From Patescibacteria group bacterium (GTDB lineage Bacteria; Patescibacteriota; WWE3; UBA101185; 2-01-FULL-41-18): 64,000 bases of DNA. Location of the stretch: the NCBI GenBank assembly GCA_038064575.1, contig JBBTST010000001.1, positions 99,650 through 163,649 on the forward strand, read 5' to 3'. The stretch's first letter is position 1. Each line of letters starts with the position of its first letter. The notes under the pieces were generated by a model that saw only the letters and a list, made by a program, of their open reading frames with translations, searched no databases and was not told the DNA's origin. This document shows, in pieces, positions 4,537 to 14,175 of the stretch. Made by a program: the position numbers and the translations under genes.

Positions 4537-5991
4537 TTAAATATACAATCTCAATCTCTCAAGCACAACTTCTCTTCCAAGTAGTTCAAGGGTGGCAAAA
4601 AGTGGAGGTGTAACTTCTTTACCTGAAATAGCAACTCTTAAAGTCATAAAAGCATCTTTTGGCTTCATTTGCAGTTTTGAGAGGACTTCATGCCCTGCTA
4701 GCTCAAGGTTTTTTTCATCCCAAACAAGTTTGTCTGATACAAAAGACTCCAAAAAACTCCTGATAATAACTTGTGCCGTTTCCAAATTTCCGGCAAATTT
4801 AGATACTAAAGCGCTGGGTGGAGTTTCAAAACAGTCAATAAAAGACGTAAGTCCCTCAAAATCAGACAGCTTTTTAAGCCTATCCAGTATTAGAGAAACA
4901 AGCTTAACCCCTTTTTCCTTGTGCATCGTATTTAAAACTGTCGGAATTTCAAACTTTTCAGCCCAGACCACAATCCTTTCATAAACCTCCATGGCGCCAA
5001 GGGAACGAAGGTAGTATCCGTTTAACCAAAGCAATTTATCCCTATCAAATGCCACAAGATCAGATTTATGAACTCTTTCCAGAGAAAAATCTTTTATGAA
5101 GTCAGAAAGAGAATAAATTTCCTTTTCAGTCCCCGGGTTCCACCCAAGAAACATTAAAAAATTAAGGAGTGCCTCCGGAAGATAACCGTCTTTTAAAAAG
5201 AAAACAGCATCAACTGATCCACTTCTTTTGGAAAGCTTTTTATTTGCTCCAACCTCCTTTAGATTTGACAGGTGTCCATGAATAGGCATATCCCACCCTA
5301 AAGCTTTATACAAAAGAATGTGTTTAGGCGTGGAGGGAAGCCATTCAACACCCCTTAAAACATGGGAAATCCGCATAAGGCGGTCATCAACCACAACTGC
5401 AAGATGATAAGTTGGATAGCCATCAGACTTTAAAAGCACATAATCATCAAGATCAGATGAGTTAAATGAGATTTTCCCCAAGAAAAGATCTTCAAAAAAC
5501 ACCTCCTCATTTTCCGGCATTTTGAATCTTATAACATGCTTTTCTCCTCTTTTTATGGCCTCTGAAACTTCATTTCCAGAAAGCATAAGGCAATGTCTGT
5601 TGTACTTTGTGACCGGGGAACCGTTGACTTTTTGATCCTGCCTAGCTTTTTGAAGAGCCTCTTCAGAACAGAAACAGCAATAGGCTAAACCTTTTTCAAC
5701 AAGCTTTTTTGCATACTCAGAATAAATATGAAGCCTTTGGGATTGAATATAGGGTTCAAAAGGACCACCCACCTCAGGACCCTCGTCCCAAGAAAGACCA
5801 TAGTCTCTTATAACTTTGAGCGTCCTTTCCAAAGCACCCGGCACAAATCTCTGCCTGTCAGTATCTTCAATTCTTAAAATAAACTGCCCCCCGTTCTTTT
5901 TAGCCCACGCATAATTATAAAGCATGGTTCGCATACTACCTATGTGATATTCCCCAGTGGGGCTTGGAGCCATGCGCGTCCTTACAGTCAT
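4537..5991 (-). CDS. gltX: glutamyl-tRNA synthetase
   Basis: Class I signature at the N-terminus (PSPTGEYHIGSMRT) and the KLSKRSG (KMSKS) motif. Confidence 0.85.
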   Translation of the reverse strand: MTVRTRMAPSPTGEYHIGSMRTMLYNYAWAKKNGGQFILRIEDTDRQRFVPGALERTLKVIRDYGLSWDEGPEVGGPFEPYIQSQRLHIYSEYAKKLVEKGLAYCCFCSEEALQKARQDQKVNGSPVTKYNRHCLMLSGNEVSEAIKRGEKHVIRFKMPENEEVFFEDLFLGKISFNSSDLDDYVLLKSDGYPTYHLAVVVDDRLMRISHVLRGVEWLPSTPKHILLYKALGWDMPIHGHLSNLKEVGANKKLSKRSGSVDAVFFLKDGYLPEALLNFLMFLGWNPGTEKEIYSLSDFIKDFSLERVHKSDLVAFDRDKLLWLNGYYLRSLGAMEVYERIVVWAEKFEIPTVLNTMHKEKGVKLVSLILDRLKKLSDFEGLTSFIDCFETPPSALVSKFAGNLETAQVIIRSFLESFVSDKLVWDEKNLELAGHEVLSKLQMKPKDAFMTLRVAISGKEVTPPLFATLELLGREVVLERLRLYI

Positions 5992-7228: not shown

Positions 7229-8314
7229 CTACAGTAGAAGTGAATAATTTTTATCAACAAACTCAATAAGTTTTTTTGTGTCTGCAAACCTGTCAGAGCT
7301 TCCCATCACTATTGTAATAATCTCATCATCTTTATATTGATAAGAAAACACTAAAACCTCTTTGGCCTTTTCTGTCTTGCCCGTTTTAATTCCTAGAGCT
7401 CCGGGAATCTCAAACAACAGCTTATTTGTGGATCTGATGGGATGAGAAAGTTTTAAGTCTTTGGAATACAACACCTCTTCTTTAGTCCCCACTATCTTTC
7501 TGAAAACCCCGTTTTTCATGGCATTGGAAGCCATAATATAAAGATCCCTTGCCGTGGAAACATGCCCTCCATCACTACTGTCAAGCCCAATTGCATTTGT
7601 GAAATTAGTATTTGTTACACCTATTTCTCTTGCAAGTTCGTTCATTTTTGTAACAAAGGCTTGCTCGGAGAGCAAATTTGAGGAAAGCGCGCAAGCTGCA
7701 TCTCCTGCAGAAGCTACCAAAACACCATACAACAAAGATTCCACGCTAATTTTTTCAGAAGGCCTTAAGCCAATCTTTGCACCTTCAACTTTAGTACAAG
7801 TTTCTGAAACCTCTATTAAGTCCCCCAGATTAAATTCTTTTATGGCAATCAAAGCCGTCAGAATTTTTGTTGTTGAGGCTGGAGGCAGTTTAAGATCAGG
7901 TTCTTTTTCATAGAGGATTTTTCTTGTTTTTGAACTCACAACAATAGCACTGGTTGCCAAAATTTCGGGCTCAACAATTCCCTGCCTTTTTACTTCTTCT
8001 AAAAAAGGAGAATAAGTTGTTTTTTTCTCTTGACCTGAGAAAGTTGCTTCCTTTGAATCTAGGGCTGCTTTTGAACTTGCTCCAAGAACGTTTTTTTTAT
8101 AATAAAGGGAACCTATTAAGGAGCCTATTGAAACACTAACTAATATCAAAAAGAGTGAGATTGAAAAGGTAGAAAAAAGCCTTTTACGGGAGGCGGACAA
8201 ACCGGCTACAATCTTCAAAGTTGGAGAATGCGCTTCAGAGATTTCCTCAACTCTTGTTTTAAGATATGCATCTTGTTCTGTTCTTTTCTTTCTATGTTTA
8301 CTTCTTTTAGACAT
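7229..8314 (-). CDS. D-alanyl-D-alanine carboxypeptidase (S11, PBP5-like)
   Basis: SxxK motif (ASTTK), SAGD (SxN-like) and KTG motif (IKTGKT); N-terminal TM anchor. Confidence 0.7.
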   Translation of the reverse strand: MSKRSKHRKKRTEQDAYLKTRVEEISEAHSPTLKIVAGLSASRKRLFSTFSISLFLILVSVSIGSLIGSLYYKKNVLGASSKAALDSKEATFSGQEKKTTYSPFLEEVKRQGIVEPEILATSAIVVSSKTRKILYEKEPDLKLPPASTTKILTALIAIKEFNLGDLIEVSETCTKVEGAKIGLRPSEKISVESLLYGVLVASAGDAACALSSNLLSEQAFVTKMNELAREIGVTNTNFTNAIGLDSSDGGHVSTARDLYIMASNAMKNGVFRKIVGTKEEVLYSKDLKLSHPIRSTNKLLFEIPGALGIKTGKTEKAKEVLVFSYQYKDDEIITIVMGSSDRFADTKKLIEFVDKNYSLLL

Positions 8315-10158: not shown

Positions 10159-11109
10159 TCAGGATGAGCCAGAATCAAGAAAGTCGCTGAAAAAAGCGGC
10201 TTTTTTGTTTGCTTAACTTTCTCTCTACCCCTTACTTCAAAATTTATTACTAAATAAAAAACCCGACCTGCGCCGAGTGGTTTCAAGTTCTTATGCTGCT
10301 AAACAACTGAAAGGTGCCAACCTACTTTATACTTAATTGACAGCTGTAACGGGCATTCCCGCTTTGTTTTACTCTCCCAAAATAGTAGGATTGGGATTTC
10401 TCCAAAGAGCTCAAGGGTGTCACATTCCCTGTCTAAGCTTTTTAAAACTATACAGTTGTAATATCAGATTTTTGTGGTGGGCGCAATAGATAAAAAGGAA
10501 AGGAGCCAGCAAGCTTAAGATTTCAAATGATCAATAATTTGGATCAATGAAAGAAATCTTAGAAACAGCTTGTCTGGCTCCAATAAGTTCTGGGTGACCC
10601 ACGAGGGTCTAGTTCGAGGGTCACCACAGTGAGACGAGGAGCTACGGGATGGCGGCGGACGGCAGATGCGGGAACCGATCAGGAATCGGGAGTGGCATTG
10701 TCGTAACCTCCTTTCCTTAAGTAGTCCAGTCGATAAGGATAAATTTATCACTTTTAAATTTTGATGCAAGAGGCAATTTTGGGGACAAAAACCACTATCC
10801 CTAAAAGGGTTATTAAAAGTTTGCTATTTGGGGTCAAACGGTTGGTTGATCCGGAAATATCTCTTGGGAGCGTTTTCCGGACCAACCGCTAGGAGTGGGT
10901 TAACTACGATATGGGCTCATGCCCGAGTGCCGCTTCCTGGTCCATTCTTCCGTCTGTGCATTACGGAAACGGATGAACCGGAAACGGCGAGTTGGGAATA
11001 AAGCTCGTCTTCATAGTTTACCCTCCTTTCAAATTAGACATTATCAAAATAGCTTCACTGGTGCAATAAGAAAAGAGACATGCAACAAAACTTATAAGTT
11101 AAAGGTGTG

Positions 11110-11170
11110 AAAAAAAGATTCGGGCCATCGAACAGTAGGAGTCCTCAAGGGAAGCTCTGTTCGATGGCCC
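11110..11170 (-). terminator. Rho-independent terminator of the M24 peptidase gene
   Basis: Perfect 14-bp stem GGGCCATCGAACAG/CTGTTCGATGGCCC at 11122-11135 / 11157-11170; on the minus strand it is followed after 5 nt by T7. Confidence 0.5.
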
Positions 11171-11290
11171 TACCGCCACGTCATCAGTTCAAGTTAGGAA
11201 AGTTATGCATAAATGCCTCCTTTCTCTAAAGAAACCGTGACATGCCAAACTTATAGTAGCAGAAATTTGCGTTTCACAAAATCGGAATTT

Positions 11291-12388
11291 TTACAATTCA
11301 ATAAGATCTGTGGAAAACTTGCCTAAAACCTCCGCCTTATCTTTGCGGCAGACAACAAGATCCTCAATCCTTACCCCACCCCACTCTTTAAAATACAACC
11401 CAGGTTCAATGCTAAAAACCTGCCCTTCTTTCAACCTATCTGAATTCGTCCTTCTGATAGAAGGCGCTTCGTGAATAGCCATGCCTATCCCATGTCCTAA
11501 ACCGTGAATAAACTTATCCTCAAGACCTTCTTTAACAAACACCTCATTAGCAGCGTTAAACACAGAATTTGCCGGAACTCCTGATTTAACTGCCTTAATA
11601 CCCTCATCGTGAGCTTTGACTACCAACCTATGGGTTTTTTTAACCCTCTCAGAAGCCCCACCCAAAGTCAGAACCCTTGTAGAGTCACCGCAGTAACCTT
11701 TGTACAAGGCCCCCCAATCAATTAAGATAAGATCACCCTTCTTAAGTTTGTTTGTGGAGGTTTGGTAGTGAGGAAGAGCAGCATTAGCATTTGTGGCAAC
11801 AATTGACGTAAAAGATTCTCCTTGGGCACCAAGACCAATCATTGCCTTTTTTAGTTTCTCAGCTATTTCTGCTTCAGTTATACCGGTTTTAATCACAGGC
11901 AAGATGGCTGCAAAGCCTGTATAAGTTATTTCCTGAGCTTTTTGCATCAATTTGATTTCTTCTTCCACCTTAATTTCTCTCAGAGCCCCGACTAAAGAGG
12001 TTGTAGCCACCAGGCTTTTTCCCTTTGTTAAGGCAGTGCTAAGCTCCACGAATTCGCTATATTTAAGGTCTTCGCTTTCAAAGCCAATCCTTTTTCCTTT
12101 GTTCTTATTCAAAAACCCAAGGATTAAGGACATAAACTCATTGCGTTCTGGTACAATTGTTATATCAATGTGGGCTGATCTTAATGCTAGGGCCTCATTT
12201 TGATAAAGCCTTGGCGCAAACAGATTCAGTTTTTCACCGTCAAAAATAAGATAGGACTCTCTGTCTTCAGGAACAGCACCTTTAAAACCCGTAAAATAAT
12301 AAATTGAGTAAAAATTAGAAATTAAAAGGCTATCAAGTTTTCTTTTTTGTACAAGATCTTTTAAATTTTTAAGCTTGTCGTCATTCAT
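11291..12388 (-). CDS. Xaa-Pro aminopeptidase / M24 family metallopeptidase
   Basis: Metal-ligand region HGLGHGIGMAIHE plus GQVFSIEPG; N-terminal creatinase-like domain. Confidence 0.8.
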   Translation of the reverse strand: MNDDKLKNLKDLVQKRKLDSLLISNFYSIYYFTGFKGAVPEDRESYLIFDGEKLNLFAPRLYQNEALALRSAHIDITIVPERNEFMSLILGFLNKNKGKRIGFESEDLKYSEFVELSTALTKGKSLVATTSLVGALREIKVEEEIKLMQKAQEITYTGFAAILPVIKTGITEAEIAEKLKKAMIGLGAQGESFTSIVATNANAALPHYQTSTNKLKKGDLILIDWGALYKGYCGDSTRVLTLGGASERVKKTHRLVVKAHDEGIKAVKSGVPANSVFNAANEVFVKEGLEDKFIHGLGHGIGMAIHEAPSIRRTNSDRLKEGQVFSIEPGLYFKEWGGVRIEDLVVCRKDKAEVLGKFSTDLIEL

Positions 12389-12450
12389 ATACTCTTTGTA
12401 ACAGATTTCTAGACCATTATAGGCAGTTGTTTGGGTAAATTACAAAAGAA

Positions 12451-12490
12451 TTTGGAGGAGAAGGGATGTAAAAACATTTCCTTCTCCCCC
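12451..12490 (-). terminator. hairpin plus T-rich tract downstream of the two-peptide unit
   Basis: On the minus strand, GGGAGAAGG ... CCCTTCTCC (9 bp) followed by TCCAAATTCTTTTG. Confidence 0.3.
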
Positions 12491-12508
12491 AATTATGCGC
12501 ACCCCCGG

Positions 12509-12643
12509 TTAGTTTTGGGTTCTACAGAGTTCGCACACTTGTCCTTTGATCACAATTGCCCCACATTGGCACCTGATAAAGGGCGTTCGGGCAAGCTTGC
12601 TAACACACAAAACTCTCTTGGCCTTACGGACTTTGGGAGGCAT
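12509..12643 (-). CDS. small Cys-rich zinc-ribbon-like peptide (44 aa): MPPKVRKAKRVLCVSKLARTPFIRCQCGAIVIKGQVCELCRTQN
   Basis: Starts 10 nt after the stop of the upstream peptide with an ideal SD (TAAGGAGAAAACCATG). Has a CxC...CxxC arrangement and is basic. Confidence 0.3.
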   Translation of the reverse strand: MPPKVRKAKRVLCVSKLARTPFIRCQCGAIVIKGQVCELCRTQN

Positions 12644-12653
12644 GGTTTTCTCC

Positions 12654-12836
12654 TTATTCTCCACCACCACCATGGCGAGGAGTGGACCAGCTTGGCCGGT
12701 TTTGACCTGGCATTTGGGCATTGGCAAACAGGCGACCATACTTTCTAACCTGCCAGACCACCCAAACTCTGCGTGCAACCGCTGCAAGTAAAACAAGCAA
12801 CAGAAGCACCAAAAGAAGCCACATAAGCGGATTCAT
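12654..12836 (-). CDS. small hydrophobic peptide (60 aa, one TM helix): MNPLMWLLLVLLLLVLLAAVARRVWVVWQVRKYGRLFANAQMPGQNRPSWSTPRHGGGGE
   Basis: ATG preceded by AAAAAGGAG; sits in a GC-rich island. Found by re-reading the minus strand, as an internal start within ORF 12654..12947. Confidence 0.3.
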   Translation of the reverse strand: MNPLMWLLLVLLLLVLLAAVARRVWVVWQVRKYGRLFANAQMPGQNRPSWSTPRHGGGGE

Positions 12837-13291
12837 TGTTATTTTTTCTCCTTTTTTAGTTTTTGGGGATGTGACTAGTGTACCAAAAGTCCATGTCCCA
12901 ATGCAAATCCATGTGCTGCAATCAACAGTACAATCGAATTTTGACAAAGCGTCAAGAAACCATCAAAAACCAAGGTCTGGTAAAATTGCCGTTGGTGGGA
13001 AGGAGCTTGCTTGTTCAAAAAGGCTTCCTTCCCACCAATCTAGCTACAAAATCACAAGCAGCAAACGCTAGAAGATTTGCCGCAACGCCATGACCTTAGC
13101 GAACATCCGTGACCGGCCACTCGGGGCGAGTCGGAGGATGCACCGGGTAAGGGCGATTGGGGTAGTTTGTCATCTTCCTTGGCTCCTTTCTTAAGATGTG
13201 TATCCAAAGCAACTTTCTCTTTAGGACACCTCTCAAAGTACAATAATTTGCCTCTCTGAAAGCTATACTAAAACAAGCATTTTTAGTCTAT

Positions 13292-13325
13292 GAAAACAAA
13301 AAAGCTCGGGATTTGATTCCGAGCT
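13292..13325 (-). terminator. Rho-independent terminator (minus strand)
   Basis: On the minus strand, AGCTCGG/CCGAGCT 7-bp stem followed by TTTTTTGTTTTC. Confidence 0.45.
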
Positions 13326-13510
13326 TGTAAAAGTTAATCAATACAAAAACGGAATCACACACCGAGCTTTATGTGATGTCTATACCAAGTGGCTATTGAA
13401 GTGAGTTTGAATACTGTTTCTCCCATGCAAGGGCAGATTACCAAAATATCACTTGGGCGTCAACCACCAAGCCCTCTATACTAATTCACCATCTACAGAC
13501 CACTCCCACA

Positions 13511-13564
13511 TAAACACAAAACCAAAAACAAAGACCCGACTTATCGTTTGAGATAAATCGGGTC
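13511..13564 (-). terminator. Rho-independent terminator (minus strand) ending the candidate sRNA
   Basis: On the minus strand, GACCCGA(TTTATC...GATAA)TCGGGTC composite stem followed by TTTGTTTTTGGTTTTGTG. Confidence 0.45.
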
Positions 13565-13717
13565 AGCCAATAAAAAAGGTACTTGCAAAGGTACAGAACC
13601 CCTTTTACTTTTTTGCGGGGTGTGCCGGCTTAAACCCTTCAGGAAAAGCTTACGCTCTTCAAGAGGGTCCTCCGGGCACAAGAGCCCGCTTTGGGAAAGG
13701 TTGGAGATTCGGTTCGC
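13515..13717 (-). ncRNA. candidate ~200-nt structured sRNA (rod-like fold; 6S-like or novel)
   Basis: Bounded by a sigma70-like promoter and a terminator. 5' and 3' ends form a perfect 11-bp closing helix (plus 13707-13717 cctttgcaagt / plus 13581-13591 acttgcaaagg) with further nested helices. No ORF. Confidence 0.3.
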
Positions 13718-13723
13718 CTTTGC

Positions 13724-13752
13724 AAGTAGTGTCTTTATAGGATTTGTCAAAA
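13724..13752 (-). promoter_or_regulatory. sigma70-like promoter (minus strand): TTGACA-17bp-TATAAA
   Basis: Reverse complement of plus 13747-13752 is TTGACA; reverse complement of plus 13724-13729 is TATAAA; the spacer is 17 nt. Confidence 0.4.
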
Positions 13753-13782
13753 AGATTGTCAAGCGCTCAGTCTCTTGGTCTA

Positions 13783-14175
13783 TTAAGTTTGCGTTTCTTT
13801 CAAAATCAGGGTTTTTCCATCTTTCTCATCTTCCACTAACACAAGCACCCAACCGCGCCCGCTAATCTTATATGTATCACCATCTCTTATAACGCAAAAG
13901 CCCAGAGGGCCAACAATTCTTCCCAAAGTATTTATTACAAACTCAAACTGCCCGCTTAAAACCAAACAGGACTCTTTTCTACCCACATCCTTTGCCATCT
14001 TTACTTCTTCCGGATACTTTCCACCTGTCATCCTGACAATAGCAAAATACTTACTCAATCCAAAAGGTCTCACAACCCAAACTACAGAACCACCACTCAA
14101 CTCATATTTTTTTATGAAAGAATACATAGTGATCTTCTCCTTTAGCAAATTAGGCTTTTCTGAAAAAAGCCTCAC
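13783..14175 (-). CDS. hypothetical protein (possibly cupin-like beta-barrel)
   Basis: 130 aa with no diagnostic motif recognised. Confidence 0.35.
   Translation of the reverse strand: MRLFSEKPNLLKEKITMYSFIKKYELSGGSVVWVVRPFGLSKYFAIVRMTGGKYPEEVKMAKDVGRKESCLVLSGQFEFVINTLGRIVGPLGFCVIRDGDTYKISGRGWVLVLVEDEKDGKTLILKETQT

Follow-up and report, generated by a model that had tools for sequence, protein, structure and literature searches.

A candidate pair of small genes for a membrane peptide and a zinc-ribbon-type peptide in a gap without NCBI gene calls of a Patescibacteria genome

Small membrane regulatory peptides, among them AcrZ, KdpF and MgtS, and small zinc-ribbon proteins are well-known kinds of bacterial protein. 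The Salmonella mgtCBR leader holds a pair of short open reading frames (ORFs), one of which is the proline-codon ORF mgtP (PMC3641672); together with mgtL, it sets the precedent for leader ORFs rich in proline codons (PMC3641672; PMC6460261). Here, we describe a locus that resembles each of these systems in part, located in a 64-kb stretch of DNA (64,000 nucleotides, hereafter the window) that belongs to contig CAYHMR010000003.1 of assembly GCA_964357935.1, a metagenome-assembled 'Patescibacteria group bacterium' from Hainich groundwater. A 1.4-kb gap on the minus strand (12389-13782), for which there is no NCBI gene call, holds two adjacent small ORFs: ORF1, which encodes a predicted single-pass membrane peptide, and ORF2, which encodes a basic, cysteine-rich peptide of zinc-ribbon type (Table 1). 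The reading we favor, to which we give slightly better than an even chance, is that both are genuine, co-transcribed small-protein genes, a membrane anchor and its zinc-ribbon-type partner, forming the distal cistrons of a leader-controlled mini-operon. The pair is an unannotated, lineage-restricted member of well-known kinds of protein rather than a new kind of system.

The evidence is strongest for ORF2. Because peptide database searches came back empty, related loci were fetched through synteny, using the M24B Xaa-Pro peptidase gene that flanks the gap as an anchor; the contigs of its relatives P0003 to P0006 yielded four loci, L058 to L061, and the five M24B proteins form one clade of about 49-58% identity. 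L060 encodes an M24B protein 55% identical to that of the window, in the same M24B-aspS-ybaK gene order, and directly upstream of it (176 nt) lies a 39-amino-acid ORF, MFAWVRGLFGHKATPFIQCGSCGKTVIKGEECPHCGYQN (176-295), behind the Shine-Dalgarno (SD) sequence GAAGGAGG. The last 26 residues of this peptide align to residues 20-44 of ORF2, with identity at 15 of the 25 aligned residues (TPFIxC..CG..VIKG..C..C..QN-stop) and the same stop position. ORF2 detects this locus by tblastn with an E-value of 2e-6; in the reciprocal search, ORF2 is the only match to the L060 peptide in the 64-kb window (E 4e-6), and the local alignment score of 74 compares with 20.6 +/- 4.1 for shuffled sequences (z = 12.9). 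Seven of the identical residues are encoded by codons that differ synonymously only; with pN at 0.26 and pS at 0.75, synonymous sites are saturated. Neither the antisense frame of 105 amino acids, which reaches E 2.5, nor any other frame of the ORF2 region gave a significant match in the related loci. Since the homology is frame-specific, synonymous-biased and found at the same genomic position, ORF2 is very probably a real gene, and the comparison points to purifying selection on its product as a protein.

ORF2 has a net charge of +9 and the cysteine pattern C25xC27-x9-C37xxC40, plus C13. Two CxxC-type knuckles separated by a short spacer, as in zinc ribbons, are found in the L060 ortholog (C19xxC22-x9-C32xxC35), and a related pattern occurs in a counterpart from L061 discussed below (C12xxC15-x6-C22xH24). 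The basic or amphipathic N-terminal halves of the three peptides (MPPKVRKAKRVLCVSKLAR, MFAWVRGLFGHKA and MKKFIKWLTKF) do not align. The L060 ortholog gives sub-threshold matches to some twenty zinc-ribbon or zinc-finger families at similar E-values, including HypA and L37e, the best zinc-ribbon score being that of DZR (16.4 bits, E 0.01, against a cut-off of 27.3). The ORF2 type resembles generic zinc ribbons (DZR PF12773, Zn_ribbon_3 PF13248, Zn_Ribbon_1 PF13240), to which the ortholog has its best sub-threshold matches: the two knuckles stand nine residues apart (CxxC-x9-CxxC in L060, CxC-x9-CxxC in the window), a CG follows the first of them, and the domain measures ~25 residues. Unlike these families, the ORF2 type is a stand-alone peptide of 39-44 amino acids whose N-terminal half is variable and either amphipathic or basic, it always lies beside a small transmembrane (TM) peptide gene and an M24B gene, all ortholog scores stay below the gathering cut-offs, and the window peptide matches none of them. 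The cysteine pattern would be compatible with zinc binding by ORF2.

Database searches gave little else. ORF2 has no Pfam match at E<=10, and neither ORF1 nor ORF2 reaches a curated cut-off in Pfam, NCBIfam, PHROGs or PADLOC or matches PDB sequences or, by tblastn, phage DNA. In a word-indexed search of 5.8 billion proteins, ORF2 found no match and ORF1 matched only itself. An exhaustive phmmer search of 1.84 billion representatives returned a single match to ORF2 (E 6.5e-5), the 629-amino-acid protein P0122, which carries four 'TVDCQxGAVLVPGQSCT' repeats; its score sums four 20-residue stretches sharing C-Q-x-G-A...G-Q-x-C, and we take the match to reflect chance or composition rather than a zinc ribbon.

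Table 1. Features of the small-ORF region and its flanks (window positions; nt, nucleotides)
Feature	Position	Strand	Remarks
ORF1, 60-amino-acid predicted single-pass membrane peptide (MNPLMWLLLVLLLLVLLAAVARRVW...HGGGGE; MNPLMW...HGGGGE)	12654..12836 incl. stop	-	ATG 12836..12834, TAA 12656..12654
ORF1 SD, AAAAAAGGAG / AAAAAGGAG	12848..12857, GGAG at 12851..12848	-	11-nt spacer to ATG
ORF2, 44-amino-acid basic Cys-rich zinc-ribbon-like peptide (MPPKVRKAKRV...CELCRTQN)	12509..12643 incl. stop	-	ATG 12643..12641, TAA 12511..12509
ORF2 SD, AAGGAG	12650..12655	-	overlaps ORF1 stop codon; 6-nt spacer to ATG
Terminator-like hairpin + U-rich tail	12436..12492	-	closes small-ORF unit; arms 12452-12464 / 12480-12492, 13 nt each, 15-nt loop
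Promoter-like TTGACG-17-TAATCT	13435..13463	-	by inspection; 8 nt before ORF0 ATG
ORF0, candidate leaderless 23-amino-acid mini-ORF, MGETVFKLTSIATWYRHHIKLGV	13355..13426	-	UGA stop inside 5' arm of long hairpin
Long hairpin, inner 8-bp terminator stem AAGCUCGG...CCGAGCUU, then U6	13301..13370	-	unique in window; conserved in L059, L061
ORF3, 25-amino-acid proline-rich mini-ORF, MTNYPNRPYPVHPPTRPEWPVTDVR, SD GAAAGGAG	13096..13173	-	counterparts in L059, L061
Hairpin A, T-rich tail, 13 nt after ORF3 stop	13058..13083	-	terminator-like site
Hairpin B, perfect 13-bp stem, 21-nt loop	12992..13038	-	conserved in L059 (5722-5771), L061 (1976-2022)
TTGAC-GCTTT-GTCAA palindrome, -35-like TTGACG	12941..12955	-	105 nt upstream of ORF1 ATG; not conserved
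M24B Xaa-Pro peptidase family gene (Creatinase_N + Peptidase_M24)	11291..12388	-	3' neighbor of gap; syntenic anchor for related loci
Promoter-like TTGTAA-18-TATAAT of M24B gene	12416..12445	-	promoter scan

The preliminary description of this stretch had proposed two adjacent small minus-strand ORFs with ideal SDs in place of longer overlapping ORFs. Both ORFs and their AAGGAG-type SDs are read directly from the sequence, with exactly 10 nt between the ORF1 stop and the ORF2 ATG (GGAGAAAACC), and the short two-ORF reading is preferred; TTG-start ORFs of 97 and 95 amino acids also exist, and the longer overlapping ORFs have no Pfam match. The close spacing, cited there as a sign of translational coupling, recurs in L061, where the gap between the TM peptide and the cysteine peptide is 15 nt long and contains the SD AGAGGAGG. 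That ORF1 and ORF2 are a coupled bicistron appears fairly likely. The hairpin and T-tract described 3' of the pair behave as terminator-like elements in that the arms are 92% complementary, with a folding energy of -29.5 kcal/mol (z -3.8), and are followed by AAAUUCUUUUGUAAUUU; equally strong hairpins follow the ORF2-like genes of L060 and L061. The structured leader described upstream was likewise recovered, as the perfect 13-bp stem of hairpin B. Taken as a whole, the earlier interpretation is partly supported.

ORF1 has been called as a 60-amino-acid gene in one public pipeline (Logan assembly). Its Kyte-Doolittle hydropathy over 19 residues peaks at 2.92 at residues 3-21; no lysine or arginine precedes the helix and five occur in the 15 residues after it. 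The same architecture is seen in TM peptides of L061 and L059, such that across the three peptides the 19-residue maximum is 2.6-3.3, K/R is absent before the helix, and four to five K/R are found in the next 15 residues. Because K/R occurs only after the helix, an N-out, C-in topology is predicted for all three, each of which is encoded behind a strong SD. Conservation among the ORF1-like peptides is limited to this architecture, in which the TM helix is N-terminal and a basic patch comes after it; against composition-preserving shuffles, p-values of 0.02, 0.002 and 0.0008 were obtained. The reading frame of ORF1 outscores its other five frames on codon usage, and we consider it likely that ORF1 is also a real gene. 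Like MgtR of Salmonella mgtCBR (PMC3641672), ORF1 would have a single TM helix and far fewer than 100 amino acids, and its very small cistron likewise comes after a long leader with short ORFs in it. It differs from the known small membrane regulatory peptides in lacking sequence similarity, in belonging to another phylum, in the absence of an adjacent gene for a large membrane-protein partner, and in being paired with a zinc-ribbon peptide.

The related loci place both peptides in a recurrent setting. L061 (M24B 49% identical) is collinear with the window in gene order: a proline-rich mini-ORF with an SD (MFNHPPSRPTSRPE) is followed by a hairpin of 11 bp, a TM peptide that has an SD as well (MNTNESLLVSLLVLVVLLLVFCVLPRWQMYRQHKR...), a cysteine peptide, a strong hairpin and then the M24B gene. 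The cysteine peptide is a 27-amino-acid product, MKKFIKWLTKFCKICGAIWGECDHTKA (2281-2364), with a CxxC-x6-CxH pattern and a 'CGAI' in common with ORF2. Since its similarity to ORF2 is non-significant by sequence (p = 0.16), its status as a counterpart rests on position, order, signals and cysteine pattern. In L059 (M24B 52% identical), the TM peptide has 62 amino acids and ends in ...NGGGQ, compared to ...GGGGE in ORF1; it is encoded just 5' of the leader elements, not adjacent to any ORF2-like gene, no such gene being present at this locus. The promoter, ORF0, long hairpin, ORF3 and hairpin B of L059 lie directly upstream of M24B. The more distant M24B loci L062-L067 have neither a comparable gap nor small ORFs, and an M24B synteny search of GTDB genomes and JGI metagenomes found only relatives from other phyla, at <=43% identity.

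ORF1 and ORF2 close a longer conserved unit, with two more mini-ORFs and two conserved hairpins upstream of them, which the preliminary description missed. The ORF0-terminator unit, spanning 13295-13463 (minus strand) in the window, 5283-5452 in L059 and 1595-1745 in L061, starts with a promoter-like site whose counterparts are TTGACT-17-TATTAT in L061 (promoter scan) and TTGACG-17-TATAAA in L059 (by inspection); because these sites lie only 8-10 nt before the ATG, the ORF0 mRNA is probably leaderless. ORF0 has counterparts with the same frame and stop position in L059 (MKEAAIFLLQRHISYWHRHKQLGV, 5318-5392) and L061 (MFKTITTYSHRWPRLLDI, 1633-1689). The long hairpin is nearly identical in L059 and L061 and is found once in the 64-kb window; its 8-bp GC-rich stem followed by U6 (13329..13295) has the make-up of an intrinsic terminator. 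The last codons of ORF0, AAAGCUCGG, duplicate the terminator 5' arm, AAGCUCGG, which gives two alternative 5' partners, and the segment between the end of ORF0 and the terminator pairs with the 5' arm through 22 pairs with one compensatory change, in an alignment of three sequences only. This geometry is suggestive of a ribosome-dependent attenuator. ORF0 is also rich in W, Y, H and R near its end.

ORF3 is the second mini-ORF of the leader, with counterparts in L059 (5582-5701, MTYPSYRPAYPPPARP...) and L061 (1911-1955, MFNHPPSRPTSRPE). Hairpin B starts 20 nt after the ORF3-like stop in both of these loci; its stems are UUGGUGGGAAGGA/UCCUUCCCACCAA, UUGGACGGUAAGGA/UCCUUACCGUCCAA and GAACGAGAAGG/CCUUCUCGUUC across the three loci, with several compensatory changes by inspection, a conserved loop UUUGNAANAA and a conserved 3' flank AUUUUA(C/G)CA. 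The folding z-scores are -3.3, -6.5 and -6.2. Between hairpin B and ORF1 lies a palindrome that had been read as operator-like. It is indeed present, 105 nt upstream of the ORF1 ATG, but the operator role is unsupported: its 5+5 size is at chance level (one is expected about once per 1.4 kb by our estimate), it shares bases with a -35-like TTGACG, and the related loci contain nothing equivalent. By inspection, a possible internal promoter, TTGACG-17-TGTACT, can be drawn there, which the promoter scan did not report.

The leader resembles the Salmonella mgtP and mgtL attenuators (PMC3641672; PMC6460261) in combining proline-codon-rich short ORFs, rare codons and stem-loops in a long leader, and it resembles leader-peptide attenuators in general in that ORF0 ends inside an arm of a putative terminator with two alternative 5' partners. 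It differs from them in that homology is absent, no alternative pairing between ORF3 and hairpin B is detectable, hairpin B lacks the form of a canonical terminator, and the regulated genes would be tiny proteins and/or an Xaa-Pro peptidase.

These elements can be assembled into a working model. Transcription would start at the ORF0 promoter and proceed through ORF0, whose stop lies within the terminator hairpin, to the SD-led ORF3, hairpin B, ORF1 and ORF2. The ORF1 peptide would place a short N-terminus outside, cross the membrane with one TM helix, and expose a basic juxtamembrane patch and a Pro/Gly-rich tail to the cytoplasm; ORF2 would be translated right behind it, from the stop-overlapping SD, as a cytoplasmic zinc-ribbon-type peptide, and the terminator-like hairpin would close the unit before the separately promoted M24B gene. 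With ORF1 anchored in the membrane, ORF2 could dock on or beside it via its amphipathic N-terminus and ribbon, and the two may then form a small membrane-associated regulatory module. How far ribosomes advance along the upstream mini-ORFs would gate synthesis of this module and so tie it to amino-acid (proline) supply and to the proline-related neighbors. We rate leader gating as less likely than not, and a function as a membrane module as slightly less likely still. Co-translation, zinc binding, the ORF1-ORF2 partnership, attenuator function and any link to proline are what we infer from the arrangement.

Several observations weigh against this model, or against the pair of genes on which it is built. 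The NCBI annotation includes neither ORF1 nor ORF2, and their codon usage is atypical: real genes score 0.22 +/- 0.11 bits/codon, compared to 0.02 for ORF1, which is below the 5th percentile, and -0.25 for ORF2, and the GC content at third codon positions (GC3) of the two ORFs is 0.45-0.52 compared to ~0.36. The ORF1-like peptides and the L061 ORF2-like peptide are non-significant by sequence similarity alone (p 0.001-0.16). The first knuckle of ORF2 is CxC, one residue short of CxxC, and the single-sequence AlphaFold2 model of ORF2 is of low confidence (predicted local distance difference test, pLDDT, 59.2), too low for a fold search to be worthwhile; it has two short strands at residues 22-24 and 30-32, a short beta-hairpin around the first knuckle, and no conclusion here draws on it. 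The related loci number four; of these, L058, the closest relative of L060 (77% identity between their M24B proteins), is rearranged and lacks the pair at the corresponding position, and the L060 contig ends 175 nt 5' of its ORF2-like gene. Within-population variation is uninformative because the region is known from four public copies with 100% identity over 4.2 kb. In the leader, the stem of hairpin B runs into no adjacent U-tract, so that it is not a canonical terminator, and an alternative duplex of ORF3 with hairpin B has energies no better than shuffled controls.

ORF2 could be the only gene here, with the ORF1-type ORFs arising as by-products of T-rich (CTT/GTT/TTG) low-complexity sequence upstream of it that makes no functional protein; this would account for the codon score of ORF1, for the near-repeats (repeat family D1) that encode its helix, for similarity among the ORF1-like peptides that extends to composition and architecture only, and for the position of the L059 TM ORF away from any ORF2-like gene. 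Such by-products would, however, hardly be expected to combine, at each of three loci, an ATG at a workable distance from a strong SD with a single clean helix and a positive-inside basic patch, with stop-to-start gaps of 10 and 15 nt to the ORF2-like gene in two of them, and the ORF1 frame beats its other five; we regard this explanation as improbable. Little credence is given to a broader variant, in which all 1.4 kb of the gap serve M24B as a cis-regulatory leader whose small ORFs, ORF1 and ORF2 included, matter through being translated, as upstream ORFs or attenuators, rather than through their products. Each of the three complete loci does have the ORF0 terminator, ORF3 and hairpin B upstream of M24B, in L059 with no ORF1 or ORF2 in between, and ORF3 is rich in proline codons and uses the rare CCG; the Salmonella mgtCBR leader with its proline-codon ORF mgtP is a precedent (PMC3641672). 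Yet a leader of this kind does not explain why the amino-acid sequence of ORF2 is conserved while synonymous sites are saturated, nor the strong hairpin, U-rich tail and promoter-like site between ORF2 and M24B, and no alternative pairing of ORF3 with hairpin B was found. Chance ORFs in a GC-richer, structured non-coding region, be it an RNA or the remnant of a decayed gene, are very unlikely. The small-ORF region has a GC content of 0.46-0.52 against 0.33-0.40 in its surroundings, the two strands between them carry three open frames of ~100 codons that overlap, and codon usage and the lack of an NCBI gene call fit as well, but only the ORF2 frame shows significant conservation and its substitutions are synonymous-biased, which largely refutes this explanation for ORF2. 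Nor does the region behave as a known RNA or a broken gene: neither the gap that holds the pair nor a second ORF-poor gap between M24B and aspS-ybaK (10159-11290) has an Rfam match, even at E<=10 on short stretches, reassigning any single stop codon opens no long frame in either gap, which speaks against an alternative genetic code or decayed gene, and the longer ORFs match nothing in Pfam.

Two further readings concern what the peptides are. The size of ORF2, its basic N-terminus and its C-terminal four-cysteine ribbon fit a divergent paralog of bL32 (PF01783) or another zinc-ribbon ribosomal protein, and the L060 ortholog has a sub-threshold match to Ribosomal_L32p (E 0.034; residues 12-38 on profile positions 22-48). 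This match stands at 14.8 bits against a curated cut-off of 21.3, among 20 other generic zinc-ribbon families at similar E-values, while the window peptide matches nothing in Pfam, NCBIfam or PDB, in agreement with the preliminary view that the cysteine peptide fits no ribosomal family. A basic N-terminal segment is the conserved hallmark of bL32, and bL32 membership is argued against because the N-terminal halves of the three orthologs are unrelated; the genomic context is also one of peptidases and not a ribosomal-protein or plsX operon, which makes a ribosomal identity extremely unlikely. Equally hard to credit is the suggestion, made in the preliminary description, of a type-I-toxin-like or bacteriocin/immunity-like pair, with ORF1 as toxin or bacteriocin and ORF2 as partner or immunity peptide. 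ORF1 does share with the toxins of Hok/Sok, TisB/IstR and Fst its small size (<=60 amino acids), a hydrophobic helix and a charged tail, a superficial likeness to such cassettes. What sets it apart from type I toxin-antitoxin systems is a strong SD exposed in an A-rich unpaired stretch, a probably co-translated partner protein, stable synteny and the absence of any sign of an antisense RNA: no plus-strand promoter-like site was found in 12300-13900 by a consensus scan, itself a weak test. Toxin cassettes have a patchy distribution; the position of this pair between the same housekeeping genes is kept across lineages that share no more than about 50-55% identity in M24B. The bacteriocin variant meets with the lack of a double-glycine or Sec leader, of a C39/ABC exporter, of immunity context, and of PADLOC or PHROGs matches, and with an ORF1 that begins directly with its TM helix and an ORF2 that is basic and looks cytoplasmic. 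Homologs with a conserved frame, whose absence had been named beforehand as grounds for giving up the pair, do exist for ORF2, since the L060 ortholog keeps the frame.

Returning to two genuine small-protein genes behind a leader as the favored reading, a recurrent theme of the surrounding region is proline. ORF3, a short ORF enriched in the codons of one amino acid as attenuator leader ORFs are, has 7 proline codons out of 25, with 12/39 and 4/14 in its L059 and L061 counterparts. It has one paralog in the window at 11014..10961 (minus strand; MKTSFIPNSPFPVHPFP), in which PNRPYPVHP matches PNSPFPVHP (z = 5.5), and a looser one at 10698..10642 (minus strand; MPLPIPDRFPHLPSAAIP), both behind GAAAGGAGG and with proline counts of 5/17 and 6/18. 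Across the whole window, eight ATG-ORFs of 10-60 codons have at least 25% proline, and only three of them, all flanking M24B on its strand, have an SD. The rarest proline codon of the genome, CCG, makes up 11/18 proline codons of the three window mini-ORFs, compared to 72/544 in long genes (p = 3e-6). The neighborhood also includes the Xaa-Pro peptidase and, after aspS, a YbaK-type tRNA_edit protein, a family that includes tRNA-Pro trans-editing factors. It is conceivable, if unlikely, that the mini-ORFs of rare proline codons, which would be strongly translated, and ORF0 as a leaderless arrest or attenuator ORF sense the status of proline, Pro-tRNA or EF-P and set the expression of this neighborhood; the proline-regulatory reading stays at this level because an alternative pairing of ORF3 and hairpin B is lacking and hairpin B is not a canonical terminator. 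If it were true, proline-status sensing would act on genes of proline supply and proline fidelity, with the Xaa-Pro peptidase and aspS-ybaK under its control along with the membrane-zinc-ribbon module of ORF1 and ORF2, the last being a previously unknown effector of the proline response, and the whole would amount to a ribosome-mediated switch for amino-acid scavenging in organisms described as largely unable to make their own amino acids. As an observation in its own right, a further tiny SD-led mini-ORF, MHNFPNLN, is found at 11184-11210 (minus strand; SD type GAAAGGAG/G), and a stable hairpin follows each member of this proline-rich family (ORF3, its two paralogs and MHNFPNLN) within 13-72 nt.

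Combinations of a strong SD with an ATG are uncommon in the window: of 250 SD-like motifs, 40 have one, and most of these precede trivial ORFs. Motifs of the RAAAGGAG type cluster at 10.6-13.2 kb, where six small ORFs have them. That the strongest SDs stand on tiny ORFs suggests either unusually good translation of these ORFs or SD-led initiation reserved for particular genes. Among the ~63 long genes, a strong AGGAG or GGAGG with an ATG 3-11 nt downstream precedes only a handful.

Annotation of Candidate Phyla Radiation (CPR) genomes systematically overlooks small proteins, and the 1.4 kb without an NCBI gene described here is an example. Libraries of 5.8 billion and 1.84 billion predicted proteins contained no annotated relative of the pair; it was a synteny-guided, six-frame comparison that revealed purifying selection on at least one of the peptides. 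The CPR gene inventory would gain a lineage-specific pair of a zinc-ribbon and a membrane peptide, and the case shows that, compact as these genomes are, their long 'intergenic' gaps can conceal small genes as well as conserved RNA structures. Should the mini-ORFs and hairpins prove to be true attenuators, they would offer a rare handle on the regulation of amino-acid scavenging in streamlined organisms. The practical significance is modest at present.

The genes around the gap encode peptidases of the M20 and M24 types, a hypothetical protein, AspRS, YbaK and a D-Ala-D-Ala carboxypeptidase. In the gap between M24B and aspS, the spacer measures 1.1 kb compared to 275 nt in L060, with a GC content of ~0.45 that is above its surroundings; it includes a very strong terminator (14-bp stem at 11170..11122, then T7) and, beside the mini-ORFs, a 14-bp hairpin at 10889..10846. 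A conserved leader ending in a terminator precedes aspS in the window (10255-10443, minus strand), in L060 (1650-1795) and in L058 (7940-8235), with an invariant ACGGGAAUGCCCGUUAYAGCUGU, a hairpin loop containing UGUGACACC, and GGNUGGCACC before the terminator. No Rfam family, T-box included, matches this leader. It was considered as a T-box (GAC being an Asp codon; UGGC), but in the RNAalifold consensus the presumed specifier, GUGACACC, is the complement of the presumed T-box bulge, GGNUGGCAC; a T-box is not claimed because the two motifs pair together and the Rfam T-box model does not match, and the leader is possibly an unclassified cis-regulatory RNA. Just 5' of the aspS-type leader of L058 lies an extremely basic 39-amino-acid ORF, MKGRRRRKLRNGKLRIRRRVPQSEKTRLRKIRRGRRRRK (7731-7850), with a GGGGAGG SD. 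Clusters of short inverted repeats (GGGATGACA / TGTCATTCCG, and CCCGCAAAGCGGG), similar to miniature inverted-repeat transposable elements (MITE) or repetitive extragenic palindromes (REP), fill spacers at L059 5800-5960 and L058 8240-8400, where they adjoin conserved elements; they are absent from the window. On the 5' side of the gap that holds the pair, the neighbors are an M20 peptidase gene and a gene for a 114-amino-acid hypothetical protein, all on the minus strand. The latter (13783-14127) lies directly 5' of the gap behind a strong SD, TAAAGGAG, and has no match in Pfam, NCBIfam, PHROG or PADLOC; it is followed by a terminator-like hairpin at 13564..13533.

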